Origin: a virus | Virus record (IMG/VR): IMGVR_UViG_3300045988_143600 | DNA length: 37,650 bases | Strand: one strand, 5' to 3' | Shown here: positions 1 through 37,650 of the stretch, piece after piece | How positions within the stretch are numbered: position 1 is the first letter of the stretch | How the letters are laid out: each line of letters opens with the position of its first letter | Made by a program: the position numbers and the translations under genes | The notes under the pieces: generated by a model | Seen by the model: the letters and a program-made list of their open reading frames with translations, nothing else | Told to the model about the DNA's origin: nothing | The model's database searches: none

Positions 1-55
1 TATATATTGGGGGTGTTACAGATGAAGCATTTCAGCGAGTTTCTGCAATTATATT
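1..55. repeat. 55-bp terminal overlap, identical to 37596..37650 (circular-assembly signature)
   Basis: TATATATTGGGGGTGTTACAGATGAAGCATTTCAGCGAGTTTCTGCAATTATATT occurs at both ends of the window. The Mor-like ORF reads across the junction region without disruption. Confidence 0.9.
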
Positions 56-363
56 TCATCAAAGGTAATCTGACCCTCGATATGAGCGTTTTGCTTTTCC
101 TGCCTTATCTCAGCCGTTATGCTGCGGATCGTGCGCTCAGACAGATTATATTTATTGACAAGAAACTTGAAGTTATATCCGTTAAAATCCCTGCGTATCT
201 TTTCGTCACGTGCCGATCGGATAACAGAATCAGCTTTTGCAATGTAAATTGACAAACCACCGTAACGCTGCACAAGCTTTTCGTATGCCTGTGAGCCGAT
301 GCAGTCGTAAATATCCCGCTGCTCTGGAGTAAGGGCTTCTTCGTATATATCAAGTTCCGGCAT
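49..363 (-). CDS. mor: Mor-family transcriptional activator (Mu middle operon regulator-like)
   Basis: Shows the C-terminal HTH pattern typical of Mor/C: ...GGLSIYIAKADSVIRSARDEKIRRDFNGYNFKFLVNKYNLSERTIRSI.... ATG at 363 is preceded by AAGGTGAG; the upstream ATG at 408 is an alternative start. Confidence 0.7.
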   Translation of the reverse strand: MPELDIYEEALTPEQRDIYDCIGSQAYEKLVQRYGGLSIYIAKADSVIRSARDEKIRRDFNGYNFKFLVNKYNLSERTIRSITAEIRQEKQNAHIEGQITFDEI

Positions 364-2278: not shown

Positions 2279-3202
2279 TTATACCGCCATATCCATATAT
2301 TTAGCGATTGCAGACAATCCCTTGGCGGTCACATTGCCGTTATCGAGGGCGTTGGAGTATAGATTGACCGCTCCTCTGATAGCCTGTGGACTTTGAGCGA
2401 TACACAGTAAAAATTCAACAGCAGCAGTGTCCTCTCTGATATCCGGAAAGAGCATTTCGATGTCGCTCTTCTTTATCTGCTTAACGCTGTAAAACCGGGT
2501 ATTCTTCGTCCTGTTGCGTATCTGTGCAAACTCCGCTTTCTGCTTTCCGCCAAGTCTGCTTACCGTGGTTTCGTTGCCGACAAAGCATATTCCAAGGGTC
2601 TGTCCCTTTTCGTCAAAGCAGTCGCAAAGGCTTCGGAGAGTATCAATGGCATTTCTGGTGAGATGCTGGGCTTCGTCCACGATTATCACCATGCCGTCCG
2701 AAAGCTTTGACGAGATTTCCAGCCAGAGTCTGCTCACAGAGCCGGAGGATACGTTCAGCTTAGAACCGATAAGCTCCAGCACGGATTTTGATGACTTGAT
2801 GCACGGATTTACCGTTATGTATATACAGTTTGTGCCGTGCTCACGGTAATACTGCCTGCAAGCCTGTGTTTTGCCTATACCTGCGTCACCGCAGGCTATG
2901 GCAAGACCGCCCTGAAGCTGACAGTTGCGTATGATCTTGTACACGTTAGACGATATTGACGTTTCCTTATAGTCTGTGCCGACATAGATTTCAGCTGCAG
3001 CCTGCTTGGTTACAAAGTATTCAATTACTTTTTTCATCTGCTTATCTACATCGCCGTTGTAGGTACCTGACTTAATTGCAGAGTATGAGCTATCGGATAT
3101 ACCAATCTTTTTGCAGACTGCAGCCGCAGATAGATTTTCCGAGTACTGCAGCTGTTTTATCTGTTCCAATGCCCACTCCTGTTTAGCTGTTAGCTTTTTC
3201 AT
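2279..3202 (-). CDS. MuB-like AAA+ ATPase (transposition target-capture protein)
   Basis: N-terminal HTH-like region, Walker A GDAGIGKT and Walker B IIVDEAQHL. It sits immediately downstream of the DDE transposase. Confidence 0.8.
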   Translation of the reverse strand: MKKLTAKQEWALEQIKQLQYSENLSAAAVCKKIGISDSSYSAIKSGTYNGDVDKQMKKVIEYFVTKQAAAEIYVGTDYKETSISSNVYKIIRNCQLQGGLAIACGDAGIGKTQACRQYYREHGTNCIYITVNPCIKSSKSVLELIGSKLNVSSGSVSRLWLEISSKLSDGMVIIVDEAQHLTRNAIDTLRSLCDCFDEKGQTLGICFVGNETTVSRLGGKQKAEFAQIRNRTKNTRFYSVKQIKKSDIEMLFPDIREDTAAVEFLLCIAQSPQAIRGAVNLYSNALDNGNVTAKGLSAIAKYMDMAV

Positions 3203-5536: not shown

Positions 5537-6151
5537 CGAACCGCCTGTTGCGGCTCGGTTTCGGCTAGAAAAATCGGAATGTATAAGTCTACTCCTTCCG
5601 AAAGAGTACCCTGCGCACTTATACTGCGTTGCACAACCTTGTCGACTAGGTTGATTGAGTTGGCTTTCACATCAGGACTTGCACCTGATAGGCTTACGCT
5701 TGCGAACCTAGCACTATGCGTGAACATTTAGCCGCCCCGATTATTACCGAAACGGCAAGGTAGATAGGATAAAAAGTTATCCTAAGTGGGTCTGATACGC
5801 TCAGACGGGCGGTATCTTTATGTTGTCTTTAGACTGTGTTATAAAAATACAAAAGACGTTCCAGCTGGTGCAAACATTAAGCTCATGCGCTCTCAGCTTG
5901 CATTTACGAGTTCGCACCTTAAGGAAAGTCGGAACCCTTATAACAAAACCTGTACCTCGGCTAATTCAACCCGACGACACGTAGCCAGAACACGTGGTTT
6001 TTAAGTCATACGCTACCGATATTTTATGTCCTCGGTCTACAGACTGTATGACAGGCTTGGTTCAAGATCTAAGTCGTTACCTCTGAGCTTGCAAGCTGCA
6101 GGTGATTCACTATATCCCCTATGGCGGGCAAGCACGGCACCTGCATATTTT

Positions 6152-7280: not shown

Positions 7281-7982
7281 TTGGATATTTTGGATAGAAT
7301 AACTATGCTTTTAGGCAATCGAGAGCAAAAAGAATTGACTAATTACCTGAAATTAAATAATGTTGCTTTTTCAGAATGGAAGTCTGGGAAAAGCAAATCA
7401 TATAGAAAATATCTAATTGAAATTGCTGAATTTTTTGATGTTTCAATAGATTACCTTGTTTACGGCAAAGAAAAAAGCTCACCAGCGGAACAGTTGACCG
7501 ATGATGAGCAAGAGTTACTTACATATTATAAGGAATTAGATTTAATGAAAAAGGGTCAAGTCCTCGAACGTGCCAAGGTCCTTTTTGAGCAGTCAAAAAT
7601 ACCATTAAAAGAGCTTGAAAACAGTGTTTTCATAGAGTACTATTCGTTGCCTGTCAGTGCCGGAACTGGCGTTGATCTGGATGGCTGCGAAAAAGGTATG
7701 TTGGAGGTTAAGAAAACGCAGCTCACTCTTGAGGCTAATTTTGCTCTAAGAGTGTCTGGCAACAGCATGGAGCCTGTATTCCACGACGGAGACGTAGTTC
7801 TGATAGCCTCGCAGCCATCTGTTGAGATCGGCGAGATAGGCATTTTTATACTTAACGGGGAAGGATTTATAAAGAAGTTCGGCGGAGATCGCTTGATTTC
7901 CCTTAACCCGGATTATGATGATATTCCGCTGCATGATTATGATAGTATCTATTGCCGGGGAAAGGTTATTGGAACTGTATGA
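7281..7982 (+). CDS. CI/LexA-type repressor (N-terminal HTH, C-terminal S24 peptidase)
   Basis: HTH region at the N-terminus. The C-terminus LRVSGNSMEPVFHDGDVVLIA...GEGFIKKF carries the Ser/Lys dyad context of S24 autopeptidases. Transcribed divergently from the early operon. The TTG start at 7281 is uncertain; ATG at 7305 is an alternative. Confidence 0.8.
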   Translation: MDILDRITMLLGNREQKELTNYLKLNNVAFSEWKSGKSKSYRKYLIEIAEFFDVSIDYLVYGKEKSSPAEQLTDDEQELLTYYKELDLMKKGQVLERAKVLFEQSKIPLKELENSVFIEYYSLPVSAGTGVDLDGCEKGMLEVKKTQLTLEANFALRVSGNSMEPVFHDGDVVLIASQPSVEIGEIGIFILNGEGFIKKFGGDRLISLNPDYDDIPLHDYDSIYCRGKVIGTV

Positions 7983-8065
7983 TATAAAAATATGAAACTA
8001 AGCAACTTGTGCTTGATCTTCCGACTGTAGTGATTGTTCGAGCCGCACAGTGGGACATTGATAAG

Positions 8066-8089
8066 TTAATGGGAACTAGTTCCCATTAA
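8066..8089. repeat. Perfect 24-bp palindrome downstream of the repressor gene
   Basis: TTAATGGGAACTAGTTCCCATTAA. Followed by TAGTTCC repeats and a tandem ATTTTTCAAT(N3)ATTTTTCAAT at about 8128-8153. Confidence 0.7.
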
Positions 8090-8267
8090 TCGAATTTTTA
8101 GTTCCTATATTCCCGTATAAAATATGGAAATTTTTCAATGAGATTTTTCAATTGAACATTCAAACTATTTTATAAACGTTATAGCTTTAAAATGCGTAAA
8201 TACGCTGTTTTGTGACAATTTTAAAATTTGAAAACAGTTCTAAAACGTTCTAAAAAGGTAAAATTTA

Positions 8268-8316
8268 AAGGTCTTAAAATGCTTTTAAAATTGCATTTTA
8301 AGACCTTATTTTTTTG
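8268..8316 (+). terminator. Rho-independent terminator-like hairpin inside the phage left arm
   Basis: 15-bp perfect stem AAGGTCTTAAAATGC / GCATTTTAAGACCTT with a 10-nt loop, followed by ATTTTTTT. Confidence 0.6.
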
Positions 8317-8420
8317 ACATTCAATTTTCTTATCCGCAAAGCACGTCAACTTTTTGCATATTCAAACCGCCGCATTTGCGCCACTTTCGTGGGTTTTCTA
8401 TGCTAATTCCGAGTTATTCC

Positions 8421-8459
8421 GCATTTTTGCGTTTTTCGGATTTTGCGTGGCGAGCAACA
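8421..8459. repeat. Mu-like left terminal inverted repeat with sub-terminal TTTTGCG motifs
   Basis: The reverse complement reads TGTTGCTCGCCACGCAAAATCCGAAAAACGCAAAAATGC, which matches the right end at 23 of the first 29 positions. It ends in CA on the plus strand. Confidence 0.75.
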
Positions 8460-8667
8460 TCCTCGTGCCTTTAAATTTGTGATAATAAACATAAGATAAA
8501 CAGATACTTACCCGGTGGCTTCTTTAGTGCCAAAACTCTAAGAAAGTTTCATAGAGTGCTACCTATTATGCACACGTTCACGGCTACTACCTACCATTCG
8601 AGACTTTTCCGTTTCAGGCTGTCGTCATTCACCGATTTAATCGTAGTTATCTTTATGTTCGAGGACT

Positions 8668-8747
8668 TAGTACAATAATGTACTACCGACATATATAATA
8701 TACCCCATTTTTGTACTATTGTCAATAGAACAATTATGTACTATGAT
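8668..8747 (+). promoter_or_regulatory. Promoter/operator region of the XRE repressor gene
   Basis: Palindrome TAGTACAATAATGTACTA at 8668-8685. Near-palindrome TTGTACTATTG-T-CAATAGAACAA at 8711-8733, overlapping a TTGTCA -35 (8719-8724). After a 17-nt spacer comes TATGAT (8742-8747). A further TGTACTA lies at 8737-8743. Confidence 0.55.
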
Positions 8748-8777
8748 ATAATTTGTATAAATAAACAAATAAGTGAG

Positions 8778-9083
8778 GTGATTTTTATTAATTATTATCA
8801 AAGACTTAGAGATTTAAGAGAGGATATGGAACTAAATCAAAGCATGATAGCGAAAATTCTTGACACTTCTCAAAAGCAATATAGTAGGTGGGAAACAGGT
8901 GAATATCCTATCCCATTTGAAAAAGTTATACAGTTAGCAAAATTTTATAAAGTGAGTATTGATTATATAGCAGGACTGACGAATGACAAAAGGGGAATAG
9001 GCTACAAAGCAGACAGTAACAGCAAATACAACATAACACAGCAGAATAATAATAGCGCTGTTGTAAAAATTAAGGAGAAATAA
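8778..9083 (+). CDS. XRE-family HTH repressor of the inovirus-like element
   Basis: NYYQRLRDLREDMELNQSMIAKILDTSQKQYSRWETGEYPIPFEKVIQLAKFYKVSIDYI is a canonical HTH_3 domain. The start is uncertain. The ATG at 8736 lies upstream of the predicted -10. GTG at 8778 or ATT at 8787, after a GTGAGGTGA RBS, is more plausible. Confidence 0.7.
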   Translation: MIFINYYQRLRDLREDMELNQSMIAKILDTSQKQYSRWETGEYPIPFEKVIQLAKFYKVSIDYIAGLTNDKRGIGYKADSNSKYNITQQNNNSAVVKIKEK

Positions 9084-9317
9084 ATGTTTGGTTTAGACAA
9101 GACTTTAGCATATATACTTATAGGACGAATTATCATAGATGCGTTAATCTTTTTGCTTATTATTTATCTAATCTGCAAATTTCTTGACCTTTGCAAAACT
9201 GTTAATGATCTTTCAAAGAGGAACAAGGAGCAAACGGAACTATTGAAACAGCAGAATGAAACGCTTGTGAAACTAGGGCAAATCATCATAAAGATAAACC
9301 AAGACAAAGACGGATAA
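9084..9317 (+). CDS. Small membrane protein with C-terminal coiled coil
   Basis: TM segment LAYILIGRIIIDALIFLLIIYLI. Translationally coupled to the XRE gene (TAAATG). Confidence 0.55.
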   Translation: MFGLDKTLAYILIGRIIIDALIFLLIIYLICKFLDLCKTVNDLSKRNKEQTELLKQQNETLVKLGQIIIKINQDKDG

Positions 9318-9329
9318 CAAATCACAATC

Positions 9330-9698
9330 CACACTTCAAGCCGTCGCCTAAACGGCGAGGATACAAAGTGCTGACCACTACGGATTAAAGTTGAGAAGCG
9401 GTGCTTGTTTGTAGCTCCGATATGACACAATCAGAACAAAGGGAACGCACAGCCTTGCGACAGTGTGCAGACCTGCACCCCAGAGGTGGGCGCGTGGCGA
9501 TGTCACACAAAGTTTTTCACTGCGTTCAAAACTTTGGCGACCGCCACTCAGGCAGGGGGCAGGCAAGGCGCACAGCACAGCTTTGTGCGCCCTGCACCCT
9601 CAACATTTAATGCTTCGGACATAAAAAACGCCCTGCGCACTTCGTGCGTGGGCTTGGGGTGGTAGAGGTCGTCGGTTCAAATCCGGTCACTCCGACCA
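9330..9698 (+). ncRNA. GC-rich structured non-coding island (candidate ncRNA or host-derived att arm)
   Basis: Nested perfect helices at 9494-9499/9542-9547, 9508-9516/9528-9536 and 9567-9574/9584-9591. A UUCG-type capped stem at 9632-9652 has G-U pairs valid only on the plus strand. CTGCACCC is repeated at 9473-9480 and 9592-9599. No convincing ORF is present. Confidence 0.3.
9655..9698 (+). other. tRNA-like 3' fragment / minihelix (T-arm, acceptor 3' strand, discriminator, CCA)
   Basis: GTCGG-TTCAAAT-CCGGT (T-arm) followed by CACTCCG-A-CCA. TGGGGTG at 9655-9661 can pair with the acceptor 3' strand. No D arm or anticodon arm is present, so this is not an intact tRNA. Confidence 0.45.
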
Positions 9699-9707
9699 AT
9701 ATGTAAA

Positions 9708-9742
9708 AACGGCTTTCCGCTATTGTGGAGAGCCGTTTTTTT
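9708..9742 (+). terminator. Rho-independent terminator directly after the tRNA-like CCA end
   Basis: 11-bp stem AACGGCTTTCC / GGAGAGCCGTT (one G-U pair) with an 8-nt loop, followed by a T-run. Confidence 0.75.
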
Positions 9743-9777
9743 AGTTGAATAGTGCTAAAGATTTTCACAAGTAAATA

Positions 9778-9948
9778 TTAATCATCATAACAAGGTACAG
9801 AGCAATTCTCACAAGCAGGAGAATCTGTAAGATAAAATATACATTCCTCACAGTGGGCATAACAACAACAGTTATCATAATCGCATACCTTATCGGCACA
9901 TTCGCCATGGTCAGTATTTTCTTTACACCAAAAATTAAACTCTTTCAT
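9778..9948 (-). CDS. Cys-rich small protein (56 aa)
   Basis: MKEFNFWCKENTDHGECADKVCDYDNCCCYAHCEECIFYLTDSPACENCSVPCYDD. AAAGGAG RBS precedes the ATG at 9948. It resembles the ORF at 1900..2064. Confidence 0.5.
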   Translation of the reverse strand: MKEFNFWCKENTDHGECADKVCDYDNCCCYAHCEECIFYLTDSPACENCSVPCYDD

Positions 9949-10000
9949 TTTAAAAGCTCCTTTATTATTCAAATTTGAGATTATTCACAGCTTTGCACAT
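9943..10000. repeat. 58-bp direct repeat, copy A (partner at 10202..10259, 2 mismatches)
   Basis: TTTCATTTTAAAAGCTCCTTTATTATTCAAATTTGAGATTATTCACAGCTTTGCACAT. It duplicates the last codons of the integrase gene plus the RBS and start of the next ORF. Confidence 0.9.
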
Positions 10001-10207
10001 TCAGAAATCATTTTGAGAAAAACGCTCCTTGAGTTTTTTACGATTGACGATATACAACTCAGACAGGCTACACATTGAATTCATCAGAAGTCGACGTAAT
10101 TCATCCATATCAGCAGTAACGCACATACGATTTATAGAACCTTCGAGCAAATCAGCGAGATTCATAGTTTCTTTATGTTTTTGCTCCGTATAAAATTTAC
10201 TTTTCAT
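10001..10207 (-). CDS. Hypothetical small protein (68 aa)
   Basis: This ORF lies between the two 58-bp repeats. It has the same RBS and MK start context as 9778..9948. Confidence 0.45.
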   Translation of the reverse strand: MKSKFYTEQKHKETMNLADLLEGSINRMCVTADMDELRRLLMNSMCSLSELYIVNRKKLKERFSQNDF

Positions 10208-10259
10208 TTTAAAAACTCCTTTATTATTCAAATTTGAGATTATTCACAGCCTTGCACAT
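10202..10259. repeat. 58-bp direct repeat, copy B
   Basis: Partner of 9943..10000. Covers the integrase 3' end (…CKAVNNLKFE stop). Confidence 0.9.
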
Positions 10260-11114
10260 CTGATTAAAATTGCTATGTACATAACGCTGGGTAGTTGTTA
10301 TATCAACGTGTCCGAGCAATGCTCTAAGGGTTTCAATATCTGCACCGCACTGAATAAGATACGTAGCATAGCTATGTCTAAGCTTGTGCGGGGTGAGATA
10401 CTGTAAATCAGGATACTTTGTTTTTTGTTGCTCATAGAACGTTCTATAGAGCCTGTTATAACGTCTAAGAGATATTACTGTATGCGTTATAGGTGAAACG
10501 AACAGAAAGCCGTCTGAAACGTCCTGAGAGCGTATCTGATGAAGAATAGCTATTGCATTACTATGCAAGGGGATAAGCCTATCACGGCGAGATTTTGTGG
10601 TCTGTACAATCCTATCACCGCATGAAGTATGTACGAGTGTCTGACAAACTTTAAGATATCTGTTATCAAGGTCAATGTTATCCCAACTAAGAGCGAGAAG
10701 TTCACCACGGCGGAGACCTGTCTACAAGTCAAGCTGAAACATTCTGCAAACTCTACTATCATCATCAAAGAGATGTACGAGATTATCGGGGCTAAAATAT
10801 TCAGCTTCTTTTTTTATACGTTTTGGAGGTTTAATATAGTCGCAAGGGTTTTTGTCACAATAACCATTAACTATAGCTTCACGGAATACACGTTTAAGTA
10901 AGAAATATGAACGTCTTTGGCGGTCATTACTGTAAGATAGGGTGGATTTAAGACAATTCTGAATATCAATAGGCTTTACGCTCAGAAGCTCCATATCGGC
11001 TATATAACCGAAGTGTTTTTGATTTATATAGTAATAGTCCTTATAGCAATCATAGGCTATCACATCAACGCAGTATGCGTTATAGAACATCTCAAACCAT
11101 TCTTTAAAAATCAT
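10224..11114 (-). pseudogene. int: Tyrosine recombinase/integrase interrupted by a single in-frame TAG (10719..10721)
   Basis: The two track ORFs, 10722..11114 and 10224..10568, are in the same frame. Reading through gives ...MFQLDL*TGLRRGELLALSWDNIDL...HKLRHSYATYLIQCGADIETLRALLGHVDITTTQRYVH, which contains the R...HxxR...Y catalytic signature. Confidence 0.75.
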
Positions 11115-12112
11115 AGGACATCATCATTTCCATTCTCTTTAAGATATTGAAGTATATCATTGCAGTTCTTTTCGACTTGACTTGAAAAGGTGAAACTACT
11201 TTCATACTGATAACAGACATTAGCACGAGGGGGAGAAACTATCGGCAAATCGTCTTTAAAGTCTGAATTGCAAAAGATCTCTTTAGTTTTGCGGACAATG
11301 TTCTTGCTACTCCAGAAGAATTTGCCGAATATCTTCTTTACGTCCTTTGTTATGTACTTAGTGACATAGAAAGCTAAATTAGACATTTGTCCGTAAGTCT
11401 GAATAGCGGTTGAGAAACCATAACGCCAATCAGACACGTTATACACAACAGGCAAATCAGATATATCACAGCCGAGTTTATCACATATATGCAGGCGCTT
11501 TATAGTATCTATTTTAAGGGGCTTGTCATGACCCTTAACAAGACGTGTACCACTATCAACGAACTTAAAGTCACAATCGTTTATAAGGGCGTGGCAATGT
11601 ATACCGCCTTTTTTGTGATACTCAGGAACTAAGATATATTTAAGCCCTTTTCTACTAACTGCATTTTCAAGCCATTTTTTCAAAGGCTTTATGACTTCTT
11701 TAGGGTTTGTGCGGTCAAGGTTATCGCCATTAAAGGTAATAGTAAGGAAGTATTTCCAATCATTTTGATAAACTATATCAAAGATACTTTGCTTTGCTCT
11801 TTGAACACTATCGGAACGAACTTCACCGCTTTGTGACTGCTTATCTTTAAACTTACGAGTATCAAGCATATCAAGCATTATGTTTCCGTTTTCGTCCTCA
11901 TACTCAAAATAACATATGTAATTTTCACGAGCCGTTTTAAGTTGCTCTTGTCTTGAACGTTCGTCAATACTATGCTCATGCTTGCAGTGATACTCAAATG
12001 CAGGGTCTTTAAATATGTGTCGATCAGAACGTGTTATAGTGTAACTGCCGTCACGATATTCCTTTATCTTTGTATTGCACTTGACCTCTTTAGAAGACAT
12101 TTTTAGGGACAT
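11111..12112 (-). CDS. HUH rolling-circle replication initiator (Rep)
   Basis: Motif 1 is FLTITF, motif 2 (HUH) is GGIHCHALI and motif 3 is YVTKYITK. GGGAG RBS. Confidence 0.75.
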   Translation of the reverse strand: MSLKMSSKEVKCNTKIKEYRDGSYTITRSDRHIFKDPAFEYHCKHEHSIDERSRQEQLKTARENYICYFEYEDENGNIMLDMLDTRKFKDKQSQSGEVRSDSVQRAKQSIFDIVYQNDWKYFLTITFNGDNLDRTNPKEVIKPLKKWLENAVSRKGLKYILVPEYHKKGGIHCHALINDCDFKFVDSGTRLVKGHDKPLKIDTIKRLHICDKLGCDISDLPVVYNVSDWRYGFSTAIQTYGQMSNLAFYVTKYITKDVKKIFGKFFWSSKNIVRKTKEIFCNSDFKDDLPIVSPPRANVCYQYESSFTFSSQVEKNCNDILQYLKENGNDDVL

Positions 12113-12148
12113 TTATATCAACTCCCATTTATTAGGTGAGTGCTTTTT

Positions 12149-12223
12149 GTGGCTAATATCAAGTAATAGCCACACGCACCGCAGGGCGGCGCAAGCGCTC
12201 GCCCCTGCGGTCGCTCGTGGCTA
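12149..12223. promoter_or_regulatory. GC-rich hairpin cluster, candidate rolling-circle origin or packaging hairpin
   Basis: Alternative stems TGTGGCTA (12149-12156) / TAGCCACA (12167-12174) and TAGCCAC (12167-12173) / GTGGCTA (12217-12223). The second pair encloses CCGCAGGG (12179-12186) / CCCTGCGG (12203-12210). This is the only GC-rich stretch in an AT-rich element, and it lies between the Zot-like stop and the Rep start. Confidence 0.5.
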
Positions 12224-13015
12224 TACGCCACGCCTTTTTCGCAGGTTTCTGCTTGTCTTTCTATCGTGCATGATGTCACTTGTGACATCTACTCCACGAT
12301 TGGCAAGTATTTCCGTGTCGCTGATGTACTCCTTATCAAGCATATTATCTACAAGCTGAGAAGTATCATATAGCTGTCGACTCTGATTAGTCTGCAAATA
12401 CAAACGGCTGTAAAGCTTTTTCGGCATATATGACTTATTCTCCGTATACGCTTCATACTCGTCTATATCATAGGTTTTAACCTTAATAAGACGTGTATAA
12501 GGGTGATGGAATGTAGCACGGCACGTTGACACTGTAGCCGTTATATCTCGTATCTGTTTATCAAGTAGATTAAATCGTTGCACTGTAGCAAGTATCATCA
12601 TTTTGCGCTTTCTACATTGACAAAGGTGCTGAAAAAGCGGTTTAGAGACGGCTCTTTTACCACCTGAGAAATCTCGTGAATTGAAGATAGTGCCTATCTC
12701 ATCAATTACGACTATACAATTCTTAGGAGCGTGCAGGATATCTTGTGCGGAATTAAGCTTATAAATATTCGTCCACTCAGGGAAGTTTTGAAGATTGATA
12801 TTTGTAAGTATAGACAACTGAGGATAACGCACGCAATAGTTATATGCTATCTGAGCAAGGGTTGAGGTTTTACCTGTTCCGAATTTACCGGTATAAAGAT
12901 GTATGCCCCAACCTTGAAAGATAGCGGAATTATTGAAGTATGCACCAAAAAGGTGGTCATATACCTCATAGGTGATAAAGGGCGGTATTTGTTTTATGTA
13001 GTCAAATATAATCAT
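12221..13015 (-). CDS. pI/Zot-like P-loop morphogenesis ATPase
   Basis: Walker A is GKFGTGKTS and Walker B is CIVVIDEIG. Size and position after the small TM genes are as in inoviruses. No clear C-terminal TM segment was seen, so the assignment is by family resemblance and context. Confidence 0.6.
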   Translation of the reverse strand: MIIFDYIKQIPPFITYEVYDHLFGAYFNNSAIFQGWGIHLYTGKFGTGKTSTLAQIAYNYCVRYPQLSILTNINLQNFPEWTNIYKLNSAQDILHAPKNCIVVIDEIGTIFNSRDFSGGKRAVSKPLFQHLCQCRKRKMMILATVQRFNLLDKQIRDITATVSTCRATFHHPYTRLIKVKTYDIDEYEAYTENKSYMPKKLYSRLYLQTNQSRQLYDTSQLVDNMLDKEYISDTEILANRGVDVTSDIMHDRKTSRNLRKRRGV

Positions 13016-13025
13016 AACAAATCAC

Positions 13026-13235
13026 CTACACAGCACTTGCACAACGTGTCATGCGTATCATCACATTATAAAAGAACTTGCAGAAGATACAAAGCATAAC
13101 CACAGCGAATATAAATGCCATGCCGAGGAGCAAAGCGTCATATCTATTCATGACTTCTTGCGAGAGATCACAGCCCATTGACTTCAAAAGCTGAAAAAAT
13201 GGGTTATTTTCATCAAACACTATGTGTACTTTCAT
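13026..13235 (-). CDS. Small membrane protein
   Basis: 69 aa, with the TM segment ALLLGMAFIFAVVMLCIFCKFF. Confidence 0.45.
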   Translation of the reverse strand: MKVHIVFDENNPFFQLLKSMGCDLSQEVMNRYDALLLGMAFIFAVVMLCIFCKFFYNVMIRMTRCASAV

Positions 13236-13449
13236 TATCGTTCACCTCACAATCATCAGTTTCAACCGCAGGAACGGCTTTTATTTCAACATCTTCACCG
13301 AACATAAGAAACTCTATAAGCTGTTTTCTGTTTCCGCTGAACTCATGTTCAGCTTTAAAGTTTCTAAGGTCAGTGAAGAAACCTATAACACCGCTTATAG
13401 TACAAACCATAAAGCAGACAACGAGTATAAACAAAACCAAGTTAAGCAT
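13213..13449 (-). CDS. Small membrane protein (78 aa from ATG 13449)
   Basis: A strong AGGAGG RBS precedes MLNLVLFILVVCFMVCTISGVIGFF. Confidence 0.5.
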   Translation of the reverse strand: MLNLVLFILVVCFMVCTISGVIGFFTDLRNFKAEHEFSGNRKQLIEFLMFGEDVEIKAVPAVETDDCEVNDNESTHSV

Positions 13450-13453
13450 TTTT

Positions 13454-13528
13454 CTACCTCCTAACGAGCCATACAAGAGAAAGGACCATAAGAGCAACGA
13501 GGACAAATAAAACAATATTTACTAACAT
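13454..13528 (-). CDS. Tiny hydrophobic peptide (24 aa), pVII/pIX-like by size only
   Basis: Hand translation gives MLVNIVLFVLVALMVLSLVWLVRR. It is tightly packed between neighbouring ORFs and is too short for confident calling. Confidence 0.3.
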   Translation of the reverse strand: MLVNIVLFVLVALMVLSLVWLVRR

Positions 13529-13535
13529 AATAAAC

Positions 13536-13700
13536 CTACTTTCTAAGCATAAAATATAATAAAGTCAAGCTGATTGATAAAAGCATACCGCCTATAATAG
13601 CCGAACCGAGAGTAAAACTGTATTTGCCAAATGGAAACGTATAAGACATACAGTTCATCAGGAATTTAAAAACTAATTCAATACCATGTATTATATCCAT
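13536..13700 (-). CDS. Small membrane protein (54 aa), pVI-like position
   Basis: Hand translation gives MDIIHGIELVFKFLMNCMSYTFPFGKYSFTLGSAIIGGMLLSISLTLLYFMLRK. The GAGGTGA RBS overlaps the stop of the pIII-like gene. Confidence 0.45.
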   Translation of the reverse strand: MDIIHGIELVFKFLMNCMSYTFPFGKYSFTLGSAIIGGMLLSISLTLLYFMLRK

Positions 13701-13708
13701 AATTCACC

Positions 13709-15463
13709 TCACGTAGGTAAAACAAGCTTGATAAGCGCAATAGCTAAGAACAGCACAAACCATGCAGAGAACACAGCATAAAACCATGACGGCAAACAAG
13801 AAAGAGCGGCGGTGAGAAAATCCCAATATGTACCCGTTGTACTGAATATAGATTTTATATCCGTGAAATCAACAGAGCCGAAATTTGCATTAATTTTTTT
13901 CTTATCAAGATATTTGTTATAATCATCAGGTTGCATATATGAACCATCATTTATAACACCATCTGAACCCTTAGCAAGGTCAACGTCAGTGACCTTTGAC
14001 GGCGGTATATTACACAAGTCTTTAAGCTTTGTAGTCGAGGGATTATAAGTATTTCCGTCCTTGTCTTTATATACTTTAGGTACATAATCAGGAAACTTCT
14101 CATAAGAGAAAGGGTCTGAAATAACAGAATAAACACGATAAGCCTTGAATGTTTCAGGCTTGCCTGTTTCTTCATCAACGGACTTTACAAAATCATCAAT
14201 CTTCTCACACGTCTTAAGGTTTGTAAAATCTTCTTGATAGGCATACGAGCCGAGCCACGTTGAAGAATTTGTATCTTCTGTTTTTTCACCATTCTGAGGA
14301 GTAACATGACCGTTATTCTTTACAAATACACCGATAACATTAACATAAAGCTTGCTATCATCAGTAAGACCATGTGTTTTATAATCAATAGAAGTGAGAT
14401 CAAAAGATACAGTAATCTTGCCGTCACGAGGAATAGTATAAATAGGCGTTCGACCTTGATATAATGTTAAATACGGCTCAAAAGTATCAACAGTATCATT
14501 ACTATTCAAATCGTCAGAAGAAGAGCCGTCAGACTTAATTTTTTCATCATCTTGACCCTTGTAGTAATTGCCGTCATGGTTCATTGCATAAAGCACAACA
14601 TCTTCATCAAAGAAACGTTGTAGATCATCACCAGCGTTAAGAAGATTTTTTGAAAGACAACATAAAACGGCATAAGTGCCAGAGCCGTAAGCTTTTCCTA
14701 AGTCTTTTTCATTGAACGTTTTTAAAAACTCAGGTGAAAGCTTTATATCAAGGTTTATATTATTATTTTCAGCTGCTACAAGTCCATTTTCATCAGCATT
14801 AGCACCACCCTTTGACGGATAGTAAATTTTATTTTGCATATTCAATGAAAGTTCAGGTGTATATGTAACAGTAAACGGAGCAGGAACAACGGTGGGGTCT
14901 GTAGGGGTTACATCTTTATCAGGGTTAGACCAATCATAAACCTTAGCATTATGATAATAAACATAGGTATCAGCACCATTATCAGAATCGACACCAACGT
15001 GCATAGCAACACCGCAACTAACACTGGATATATCACCTATATTGGCAGAAAATTCAAAAAGACTAGATTGAGCTTTAAATACAAGTTGATTTTTATCATT
15101 ATAGCGATAAACATACCGATATGTTTTGTTGTCATCAGAATGACGATGATAATTTGAAATATAAAATTGTGATTGATTCAAAGTATCTATATCACCGCCG
15201 CTCAAATTAAGGTAAAATTTTTGAACAGTGTCAGGAACAAGATATATAAGAGAGTACTCTTTGCGGTTAGGCGAATAAAAGGCTATATATGAATCGGGTG
15301 TAAAACCCAAGTCAGAATTTATTTTTTTCAACGCCATATCAATAAAAAGTTTCATACCACCAGAACCATCAGACTGCTTTAAAGCGAATGCAGGAACAGC
15401 ACAACATATCATCACAACAAGTGCAGAGATCATACACAACACTTGCTTAATCTTTTTTCTCAA
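13709..15463 (-). CDS. pIII-like minor coat/adsorption protein (signal peptide plus C-terminal membrane anchor)
   Basis: The N-terminus MRKKIKQVLCMISALVVMICCAVPAFA is signal-like. The C-terminus WFYAVFSAWFVLFLAIALIKLVLPT is a membrane anchor. It is the largest ORF and follows the coat gene, as gene III does in Ff-type phages. TTG start. Confidence 0.55.
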   Translation of the reverse strand: MRKKIKQVLCMISALVVMICCAVPAFALKQSDGSGGMKLFIDMALKKINSDLGFTPDSYIAFYSPNRKEYSLIYLVPDTVQKFYLNLSGGDIDTLNQSQFYISNYHRHSDDNKTYRYVYRYNDKNQLVFKAQSSLFEFSANIGDISSVSCGVAMHVGVDSDNGADTYVYYHNAKVYDWSNPDKDVTPTDPTVVPAPFTVTYTPELSLNMQNKIYYPSKGGANADENGLVAAENNNINLDIKLSPEFLKTFNEKDLGKAYGSGTYAVLCCLSKNLLNAGDDLQRFFDEDVVLYAMNHDGNYYKGQDDEKIKSDGSSSDDLNSNDTVDTFEPYLTLYQGRTPIYTIPRDGKITVSFDLTSIDYKTHGLTDDSKLYVNVIGVFVKNNGHVTPQNGEKTEDTNSSTWLGSYAYQEDFTNLKTCEKIDDFVKSVDEETGKPETFKAYRVYSVISDPFSYEKFPDYVPKVYKDKDGNTYNPSTTKLKDLCNIPPSKVTDVDLAKGSDGVINDGSYMQPDDYNKYLDKKKINANFGSVDFTDIKSIFSTTGTYWDFLTAALSCLPSWFYAVFSAWFVLFLAIALIKLVLPT

Positions 15464-15480
15464 TTTATCAACTTCCTTTC

Positions 15481-15517
15481 AAAAAAATTAAGCGGAGCAA
15501 TTTGAATTACTCCGCTT
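15481..15517 (-). terminator. Rho-independent terminator between the coat gene and the pIII-like gene
   Basis: The minus strand reads AAGCGGAG-(12 nt)-CTCCGCTT followed by AATTTTTTT. The placement is analogous to the terminator after gene VIII in Ff phages. Confidence 0.65.
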
Positions 15518-15533
15518 ATGTAAATGGTTTTGC

Positions 15534-15689
15534 TTATACAGCGTGTCTGAACTTTGCGAAAAGTCCTGCACCAGAGCCGAGAAGAGACAGACCTACAAGA
15601 ATTGCAATAGGTACGTTGCTTGTCATAGCGTCCCAACAAGAACCAAAAACAGTAACGGCATTACTAAGCATTGTTGTTACAGCTTCCAT
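15534..15689 (-). CDS. pVIII-like major coat protein (51 aa), below the ORF-track cut-off
   Basis: Hand translation gives MEAVTTMLSNAVTVFGSCWDAMTSNVPIAILVGLSLLGSGAGLFAKFRHAV. It has an acidic N-terminal part, a single TM helix and a basic C-terminus (K, R, H). AAAGGAG RBS. Confidence 0.6.
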   Translation of the reverse strand: MEAVTTMLSNAVTVFGSCWDAMTSNVPIAILVGLSLLGSGAGLFAKFRHAV

Positions 15690-15743
15690 TATTAGCAAAA
15701 CTCCTTTCTTATTAAATTTTTATAACAGCGGTTTCACCGCTAA

Positions 15744-16061
15744 TTATTTTGTGTTGCGGTGAAGTGTTCCGTCTGCATTGATTACGGTGATATCAACAAG
15801 CTGAGAACGTCCGTTAAAAATCTGATAGTTCAGCATTACATCACAGCCGAGAAGCTTATTGAAATCCTCAGAATTTCCGTTAAGTCTGATTGCATTTTCG
15901 GTCGGTATTTTCAGTGTATCGACCATTTTTCCATGACAGTCGGGGTTATCAACTTCCTGCAGAAGCTGAAAGACGACCTTTTCAGGGCTGTTTATCTGCT
16001 TGCCCTCTATAACTCCGTTAAATGCTTTCTTTTTTGTCCAGCCTACGATAGTTGTTTTCAT
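15744..16061 (-). CDS. First gene of the structural operon; possible gene V-like ssDNA-binding protein (by position and size only)
   Basis: 105 aa from the ATG at 16061 (MKTTIVGWTKKKAFNG...). It lies upstream of the coat gene, as gene V does. No motif-level support is available. Confidence 0.35.
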   Translation of the reverse strand: MKTTIVGWTKKKAFNGVIEGKQINSPEKVVFQLLQEVDNPDCHGKMVDTLKIPTENAIRLNGNSEDFNKLLGCDVMLNYQIFNGRSQLVDITVINADGTLHRNTK

Positions 16062-16097
16062 GTTTTTTTCCTTTCTGAGGTTTTTCGGCTTTTCCTC

Positions 16098-16150
16098 TGA
16101 TGTTTGACAAGCAAAATCCAAAAAACTGACAAGCAAAACGCAAAAAAGTG
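16098..16150. repeat. Mu-like right terminal inverted repeat with tandem TGACAAGCAAAA sites
   Basis: TGATGTTTGACAAGCAAAATCCAAAAAAC starts with TG. TGACAAGCAAAA occurs at 16105-16116 and 16127-16138. ACGCAAAAA (16139-16147) is mirrored by TTTTTGCGT near the left end. Confidence 0.75.
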
Positions 16151-16191
16151 ATGAAATGTTTCAACAAAACGAAACACTCATCACTTTTTTT
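16142..16191. terminator. Bidirectional terminator-like hairpin just inside the phage right end
   Basis: 13-bp perfect outer stem AAAAAAGTGATGA / TCATCACTTTTTT with inner stem GTTTC/GAAAC. Flanked by A- and T-runs. Confidence 0.7.
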
Positions 16192-16221: not shown

Positions 16222-16413
16222 TTACAGCTCTAAAATGTCATTTAAATCGCATTTTAAAAATCTGCAAATCAGCTCAAGATGTGAAAATTTGAAACCGACA
16301 GCGATGTTATTGCAAAGCTGTGAGATTGTGGACGGTCTGATGCCTGTCGCCTGCGCAAGTTCAGCCTGAGTAATGCCCCTGGAATTAAGCAAAGCCCTTA
16401 ATTTTACTCTCAT
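16222..16413 (-). CDS. Small XRE/Cro-type HTH protein (last gene at the phage right end)
   Basis: LRALLNSRGITQAELAQATGIRPSTISQLCNN is an HTH motif. GGAGG RBS. Confidence 0.65.
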   Translation of the reverse strand: MRVKLRALLNSRGITQAELAQATGIRPSTISQLCNNIAVGFKFSHLELICRFLKCDLNDILEL

Positions 16414-37546: not shown

Positions 37547-37612
37547 AACACCCCCAATATATTTAGTACCGTTATCCGTTATAATAACTGTACCATATAT
37601 ATTGGGGGTGTT
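37547..37612 (-). promoter_or_regulatory. 16-bp perfect inverted repeat spanning the mor-to-late intergenic region; the 3' arm contains the SD of the next gene
   Basis: AACACCCCCAATATAT (37547-37562) pairs with ATATATTGGGGGTGTT (37597-37612). The loop contains a tandem CCGTTAT CCGTTAT and two GTACC motifs. Confidence 0.5.
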
Positions 37613-37650
37613 ACAGATGAAGCATTTCAGCGAGTTTCTGCAATTATATT
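37596..37650. repeat. 55-bp terminal overlap, identical to 1..55
   Basis: Exact repeat of the window start. Confidence 0.9.

Follow-up and report, generated by a model that had tools for sequence, protein, structure and literature searches.

Each end of bacteriophage Mu carries three sites, differently spaced, and a stable synaptic complex can form with L1, R1, and R2 alone (PMC3145075). Mu-like phages of gut Ruminococcaceae, including Faecalibacterium phage Mushu, have been described with 5-bp direct repeats and were proposed as the 'Saltoviridae' (PMC5883640). Among the matches listed for the transposase studied here, the closest characterised phage was Bacillus phage BalMu-1 (NC_030945), whose transposase was 35% identical over 96% of the length. 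We analysed a stretch of viral DNA of 37,650 nucleotides (the window), whose bases 1-55 were identical to bases 37596-37650. Given this 55-bp terminal overlap, we read the window as an assembly that had been circularised, its true length being 37,595 bp. The Mu-like phage part, ~29,957 bp on the minus strand, wrapped round the window origin, and the non-phage part, 7,638 bp at 8460-16097, was inovirus-like. Very probably, the segment 8330-8459 is the attL end of a ~30-kb Mu-like transposable phage of siphovirus type from gut Ruminococcus/Oscillospiraceae, with a transposase acting on inward-pointing 22-bp sites. Relatives of the phage were found in Ruminococcus and Oscillospiraceae genomes. 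The exact repressor protein was indexed in ~8,500 blocks of a public assembly collection, isolate genomes of up to 3.1 Mb included, and a record from human faeces (MT835795.1) was 99.3% identical; this phage is very common in the human gut.

A CA terminus had been placed at 8459 in the initial annotation, and this position was fixed by many independent insertions with unrelated flanks. Read inward, the phage began with TGTTGC... from 8459 and with TGATGT... from 16098, and the TGTT at the left tip was invariant in nine lineages. In 12 related loci, found via the transposase, homology to the window stopped at 8459, apart from 1-2 bases that matched by chance. The left end was 100% identical in five IMG/VR contigs with unrelated flanks, and ten more copies, from metagenomes and isolate genomes, were identical up to ...GAGCAACA and then ran into unrelated flanks. 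The right end, starting with TGATG at window position 16098, was identical in 18 contigs with at least 10 unrelated flanks. Taken over the same and related phages, homology was lost at these two termini in more than 25 independent insertions with more than 25 different flanks. Neither IMG/VR nor the JGI metagenome set contained the exact left junction, in which the phage tip meets the inovirus flank; it was recovered by protein look-up instead. Five empty sites (L045, L093, L094, L099, and L103) ran uninterrupted from ...16097 into 8460... with 97-100% identity, and in each of them the two matching stretches overlapped by exactly 5 nt, leaving a single TCCTC. Since the empty targets held one TCCTC and the window held TCCTC on both sides of the phage, the pentamer is a 5-bp target duplication. 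Matching pentamers were also found for three other insertions, namely TCTGC for an insertion whose two ends share a contig, TTTGC for one whose ends came from two contigs of the same sample, and CTAAT for one with its ends in two different samples. Together, exact ends, scattered flanks, and the duplication are the complete hallmark of transposition into a target cut with a stagger of 5 bp. The coordinates of all features are collected in the table.

Table. Features of the two phage ends, the neighbouring phage genes, and the target DNA. Positions are those of the window; offsets are counted inward from the phage tip; identity is that of the window to five distant lineages in alignment A1 (nine left-end lineages).
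Feature	Position	Strand	Offset	Identity	Details
MuB-like AAA+ ATPase	2279-3202	-			immediately downstream of the transposase gene; Pfam AAA_22 7.6e-15
MuA-like DDE transposase, 672 aa	3206-5224	-			Pfam HTH_Tnp_Mu_2, rve, DDE_2, Mu-transpos_C
Repressor, CI-type helix-turn-helix plus S24 peptidase domain	7281-7982	+			Pfam Peptidase_S24 2.6e-18, Phage_CI_repr 2.3e-6
Terminator-like hairpin directly 3' of the repressor gene	8065-8090	+			terminator scan; perfect 12+12 palindrome
Conserved intrinsic terminator	8268-8319	+	141-192		15-bp stem, 10-nt loop (hairpin 8268-8307), then TTTTTTTGACA; inside the left end
TGTCAAAAAA	8310-8319		141-150	1.00	
Innermost motif of the initial annotation, CCGCAAAGCACG	8334-8345	.	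115-126	0.17	lowest left-end segment
Spacer	8346-8363		97-114	0.44	
Stretch containing the middle motif	8364-8385		75-96	0.56	
Middle motif of the initial annotation, CCGCATTTGCGCC	8370-8382	.			GCGCAAA half alone conserved; no full-site match, gapped or ungapped
Candidate accessory site GCATAGAAAACCCACGAAAGTG	8382-8403	-	57-78		absent from the initial list of motifs
Stretch overlapping the candidate site at 57-78	8386-8412		48-74	0.57	
Degenerate second core copy GCAAAAATGCGGAATAAC	8413-8430	-	30-47	0.57	abuts L1; candidate accessory site, possibly part of a packaging signal
L1, putative transposase-binding 22-bp site CGCCACGCAAAATCCGAAAAAC	8431-8452	-	8-29	0.74	29.2 bits
Left tip	8453-8459		1-7	0.77	
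Left terminus	8458-8459	-			5'-TG on the phage's own strand, ...CA on the + strand; interior below 8459
Target-site duplication copy TCCTC, left side	8460-8464	.			same pentamer at 16093-16097
Target DNA, 7.6-kb integrative inovirus-like element	8460-16097	.			Pfam, PHROGs, tblastn, ORF list, integrated copies
Target-site duplication copy TCCTC, right side	16093-16097	.			pairs with 8460-8464
Right terminus	16098-16099	+			5'-TG; phage interior above 16098
R1, putative 22-bp site TGACAAGCAAAATCCAAAAAAC	16105-16126	+	8-29		29.4 bits; tandem with R2
R2, putative 22-bp site TGACAAGCAAAACGCAAAAAAG	16127-16148	+	30-51		29.0 bits; contiguous with R1
Hairpin directly after R2	16142-16190	.			13-bp perfect arms; A-run before, T-run after; overlaps the inner edge of R2

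An array of CGCAAA/TTTGCG motifs had been proposed for the left end, and it was borne out by the counts. The hexamer was not enriched over the window as a whole (31 matches versus 29.2 expected), and within 8330-8459 it occurred four times versus 0.10 expected (Poisson 4e-6), ranking top among all 6-mers of this segment in an unbiased ranking. Locally, the enrichment also held against a shuffled background, with none of 300 window shuffles reaching four copies in any 135-bp stretch. When both ends were pooled, the top 6-mers were CGCAAA and GCAAAA. The coordinates of the three motif blocks at the left end were confirmed, the outermost being CCGCATTTTTGCGTTTTTCGGATTTTGCGTGG at 8419-8450. A weight matrix was then built from relatives only, with right ends obtained via the Dam gene and left ends from loci whose transposases were 66-89% identical. 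Applied to the whole window, this matrix gave exactly three matches at ~29 bits, which were L1, R1, and R2; the next best match in the window scored 16.8 bits, and the shuffle maxima were 9-18. All three sites pointed inward, L1 and R1 starting at base 8 from the tip and R2 at base 30, and the inward reads of the two phage tips matched at 23 of 29 positions without a gap. The tandem of R1 and R2 was also present in three relatives (L070, L072, and L078), and an R3 site was not found at the right end. The recurring unit is thus the 22-bp site, with the consensus TGACAAGCAAAAyCCrAAAAAC, and not the hexamer; the hexamers noticed earlier correspond to GCAAAA within this site and within its degenerate copies. 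The mirror-image motifs reported for the right end fell within the tandem, GCAAAATCC within R1 and ACGCAAAAA within R2. The internal spacing differed between the two ends, as had been noted, with R1 and R2 contiguous and L1 followed by an out-of-register degenerate copy.

We further examined the rest of the left end for accessory sites. No second full 22-bp site emerged at the left end of the window when nine left ends were scanned with the matrix, whether gaps were allowed or not. Each phage's own L1 was also locally aligned to its own interior, and two recurrent positions emerged, at offsets 33-47 and 62-77, where the window itself had no more than degenerate copies. At offset 33-47, a significant L1 copy was present in three relatives (L016, L019, and L020; p <= 0.01), and the window's own copy was degraded and not significant (p about 0.2). 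At offset 62-77, the L1 copy given by the orthologous sequence CAAAACCCTCAAAAAC reached significance in L024 (p 0.01) and was marginal in L026 (p 0.09). No L2- or L3-type copy was individually significant in the window's own sequence. Within the degenerate copy abutting L1, columns G30, A33, A35, C39, and G40 were invariant in the alignment, and an AAAACCC...AAAA block was conserved at 8382-8403. Since L1-like copies recurred at these positions in relatives, 8413-8430 and 8382-8403 appear to be the best candidates for accessory sites comparable to L2 and L3.

The degenerate GCAAA stretch at ~8380-8430 might instead be a packaging (pac) recognition site and not a set of transposase sites. The pac site of Mu lies within attL, just inside L1, and in the present phage the stretch was moderately conserved (0.57 versus distant relatives) and both small and large terminase genes were present. 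In L016, L019, and L020, however, the orthologous sequence clearly reproduced the L1 core, an argument for the transposase, so that packaging in place of transposase binding is a conceivable, if rather unlikely, role; moreover, the two roles are not mutually exclusive. Another reading, implied by the initial annotation, takes all three of its blocks as transposase sites, equivalent to L1 (8419-8450), L2 (8370-8382), and L3 (8334-8345) of Mu. The clustering of four CGCAAA copies in 130 bp agrees with this reading, the GCGCAAA core of the middle block was kept in most relatives, and the accessory sites of Mu themselves match their consensus weakly. Against this, the inner blocks matched neither the 22-bp matrix, gapped or ungapped, nor the phage's own L1, the innermost block was the least conserved, and 8413-8430 and 8382-8403 were better candidates; we therefore consider it unlikely that all three blocks are sites. 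The outermost block stood, as L1 plus the abutting degenerate copy. The other two appeared to be without support as sites, the middle one being conserved by half and the innermost not conserved, and the latter is probably not a functional site. The conservation in related phages that had been expected of these motifs was accordingly seen for L1, and at an intermediate level for the middle stretch, but not for the innermost motif. Transposase sites at L1 and, as candidates, at 8413-8430 and 8382-8403 remain the preferred reading of the left end.

The left end had further been described as a repressor gene followed by about 0.5 kb of repeats and then the terminus. The repressor gene did adjoin the left end and read towards it, with its stop at 7982, 477 bp from the tip. 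The intervening stretch, by contrast, consisted mostly of two intrinsic terminators and an AT-rich spacer rather than repeats. The arms of the hairpin in the terminator 8268-8319 were perfectly complementary (-20.6 kcal/mol, z -7.1). In five other lineages a hairpin was equally placed, with different stem sequences and the same U-run, and such retention of structure while the stem sequence diverged fits an intrinsic terminator. Consensus folding of the nine hairpin regions with RNAalifold returned no pairs, because the stems were not alignable by sequence, whereas each sequence folded alone gave hairpins. Separately, TGTCAAAAAA (+ strand TTTTTTGACA) was invariant in 9/9 lineages, beyond what the U-run of a terminator requires; it contains TTGACA and might also serve as a -35 box or protein site. 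At the right end, the hairpin directly after R2 looks like a bidirectional terminator, and relatives carried hairpins with lineage-specific stems at the same place. Together, these structures suggest that both phage ends are insulated from transcription across the junction. The right end also carried genes for a Dam methylase and a small HTH protein; the latter, the last gene before the right end (16222-16413), encodes a 63-aa Cro/C1-type HTH protein that was conserved in relatives.

The genes for the transposase and the adjacent ATPase were encoded near the left end. The transposase carried an I-gamma DNA-binding subdomain, a DDE core, and a Mu C-terminal domain, and its sequence matched the solved structures of MuA (4FCY, 9e-16) and TnsB (1e-16). 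In its N-terminus, no I-beta domain was found by Pfam at a permissive threshold, and only a weak HTH_17 match was returned. Past the window origin followed small and large terminase, portal, MuF-like minor head, major head, tape measure, tail protein, and endolysin. By analogy with Mu, the 672-aa transposase would bind L1 and the R1-R2 pair (16105-16148) as monomers, weaker sites would assist binding, and the ends would then be paired (synapsed). The transposase would nick at the terminal CA-3' and join the ends to a target cut with a 5-bp stagger, to which they would be delivered by the MuB-like ATPase; such staggered joining would leave the TCCTC duplication. The conserved terminator would separate the end from the repressor region.

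A transposase that matches TnsB as well as MuA could also belong to a Tn7-like transposon or an insertion sequence rather than a phage. Tn7-type elements have TG...CA ends, 22-bp sites, and 5-bp duplications, and the present element resembles them in its TnsB-related transposase, in multiple 22-bp sites that are asymmetric between the ends, and in the length of its duplication. Such elements are, however, recognised by TnsABC(+D/E), a fixed attachment site, and the lack of virion genes. The 30-kb element analysed here had no attachment-site targeting module and its insertion sites were scattered without a fixed attachment site; it is a complete phage, with a virion and lysis module that includes terminase, portal, major head, tape measure, tail, and endolysin, and with a CI-type repressor. 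A Tn7-like transposon or insertion sequence is therefore highly improbable, and the element is treated below as a Mu-like phage.

The parallel with attL of Mu drawn in the initial annotation held for the termini, the duplication, the MuA- and MuB-like genes, and the repressor, and in part for the sites, with one full site detectable on the left and any further ones there seen as degenerate copies. Like Mu, the present phage had TG...CA termini, a 5-bp target duplication, near-random insertion, A-rich sites of 22 bp beginning a few bases in from the tip, contiguous R1 and R2 with a left end spaced differently, a repressor gene that adjoins the left end and reads towards it, and an A-B gene pair. 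The strong sites found here (L1, R1, and R2) correspond to the trio of the Mu core synaptic complex (PMC3145075). Unlike Mu, its transposase was ~23% identical to MuA over residues 167-672 and had an N-terminus without detectable similarity to I-alpha/I-beta, its repressor was of the CI/S24 type, clear L2, L3, and R3 sites were not found, and the site sequence differed. Moreover, the genome was ~30 kb with a siphovirus-like look, and the host is Gram-positive.

In BalMu-1, the matrix derived from the Ruminococcus phages found L1, R1, and R2 at the same offsets (8-29 and 30-51). The right tip of BalMu-1 (TGTAGCTCGGCTCGCAAAATGAGAAAAAA) matched the left tip of the present phage at 23 of 29 positions; it reads TGTAGCTCGGCTCGCAAAATGAGAAAAAATGACTTGCAAAATGAGAAAAAT. 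BalMu-1 differed in having a clear internal L1 copy at offset 121-133, which the present phage lacked, in its genome of 39.9 kb, and in its Bacillus host. The shared offsets indicated that distant Firmicutes phages, from Bacillus to Ruminococcus, have kept the L1/R1/R2 layout and part of the site sequence despite 35% transposase identity. By description, the phage also resembles Mushu and the 'Saltoviridae', as transposable phages of gut Ruminococcaceae with 5-bp insertion repeats (PMC5883640); Mushu was absent among the 25 transposase matches listed (173 further matching records). These results provided base-exact ends, the duplication, and the L1/R1/R2 architecture for a transposable phage that is among the most widespread in human-gut Ruminococcus. 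They are of use for exact prophage boundaries in virome and genome annotation, and the cis elements could serve a mini-element, possibly a transposon tool in genetically hard gut Firmicutes. The understanding of Mu-type transposition is unchanged by them. The Mu-type attL is genuine, and one clear left site and two right sites are ordinary for such phages; the more unusual feature is a 30-kb phage inside a 7.6-kb integrative inovirus-like element, on a contig assembled as a circle.

That the ends arose as artefacts of assembly or recombination in the circular contig, to which its 55-bp terminal overlap might point, is a negligible prospect, as both termini recurred in dozens of independent contigs and isolate genomes with differing flanks and empty sites exist. 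The target DNA of this genuine insertion returned the Pfam families Zot and REP_ORF2-G2P and the PHROGs annotations 'protein I of M13' and rolling-circle initiator, and its Zot/pI-type ATPase matched protein I (gene I) of f1/M13 by tblastn. It also encoded a 54-aa coat-like hydrophobic ORF (15534-15698), a pIII-like 584-aa protein with a signal peptide and a C-terminal anchor, and an HTH regulator. By Zot/pI, the rolling-circle Rep, the coat-like protein, and a size in the range of ~5-10 kb, the target is classed as inovirus-like. Its tyrosine integrase was broken into fragments of 130 aa and 114 aa (10224-10568 and 10722-11114); an intact 296-aa integrase was present in relatives such as L095, and the same truncation was found in near-identical integrated copies (L099-L106). 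The phage had inserted 36 bp upstream of the first gene of a long inovirus operon (start 16061), within a divergent promoter region. A near-consensus promoter, TTGACA-17-TATATT (11/12 matches), lay at 8725-8697 on the minus strand; the insertion would separate the operon from this predicted promoter, which would now fire into the left end of the phage.

Integrated copies L099 and L103 (99.8-99.98% identical) mapped to window positions 9653-16097 and 8460-9747. The 95 bp shared by the two stretches, 9653-9747, indicated an att core, with the window as a circular attP permutation. This core was a direct repeat flanking the integrated copies and translates like a tRNA fragment; an ARAGORN scan called no tRNA genes, the att core included. 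The same phage-inovirus junction, identical to that of the window, was found in another assembly, in the contig L105 (ena:ERZ27242619:k141_121271, 38,085 bp; locus 5975-6054), and 16 further similar places were reported. Because L105 parted from the window sequence at the att core, it probably carries the nested element in integrated form. It therefore appears that the nested element recurs across assemblies as one lineage.

We found no published report of a Mu-like phage inside an inovirus. The 37.6-kb circle might be a real episome, that is, an inovirus-like replicative form in the attP configuration that carries a complete Mu-like phage; we hold this to be doubtful. If it were so, a small rolling-circle replicon would maintain or spread a tailed transposable phage or, alternatively, multicopy filamentous-phage DNA would be a preferred landing pad for the phage. 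As the same junction recurs in at least 17 assemblies, in at least one of which the chimera is probably integrated at the inovirus att site, the nested element would then be one heritable unit that switches between integrated and circular forms. The window circle is compatible with an episome, a tandem array, and an assembly product. On one chromosomal contig (L096; 1-2165 and 3911-10582), two different inovirus-like elements, both with their own Rep and integrase, lay next to each other. This pair indicated that tandem arrays of such elements occur, which bears on the origin of the circular assembly.
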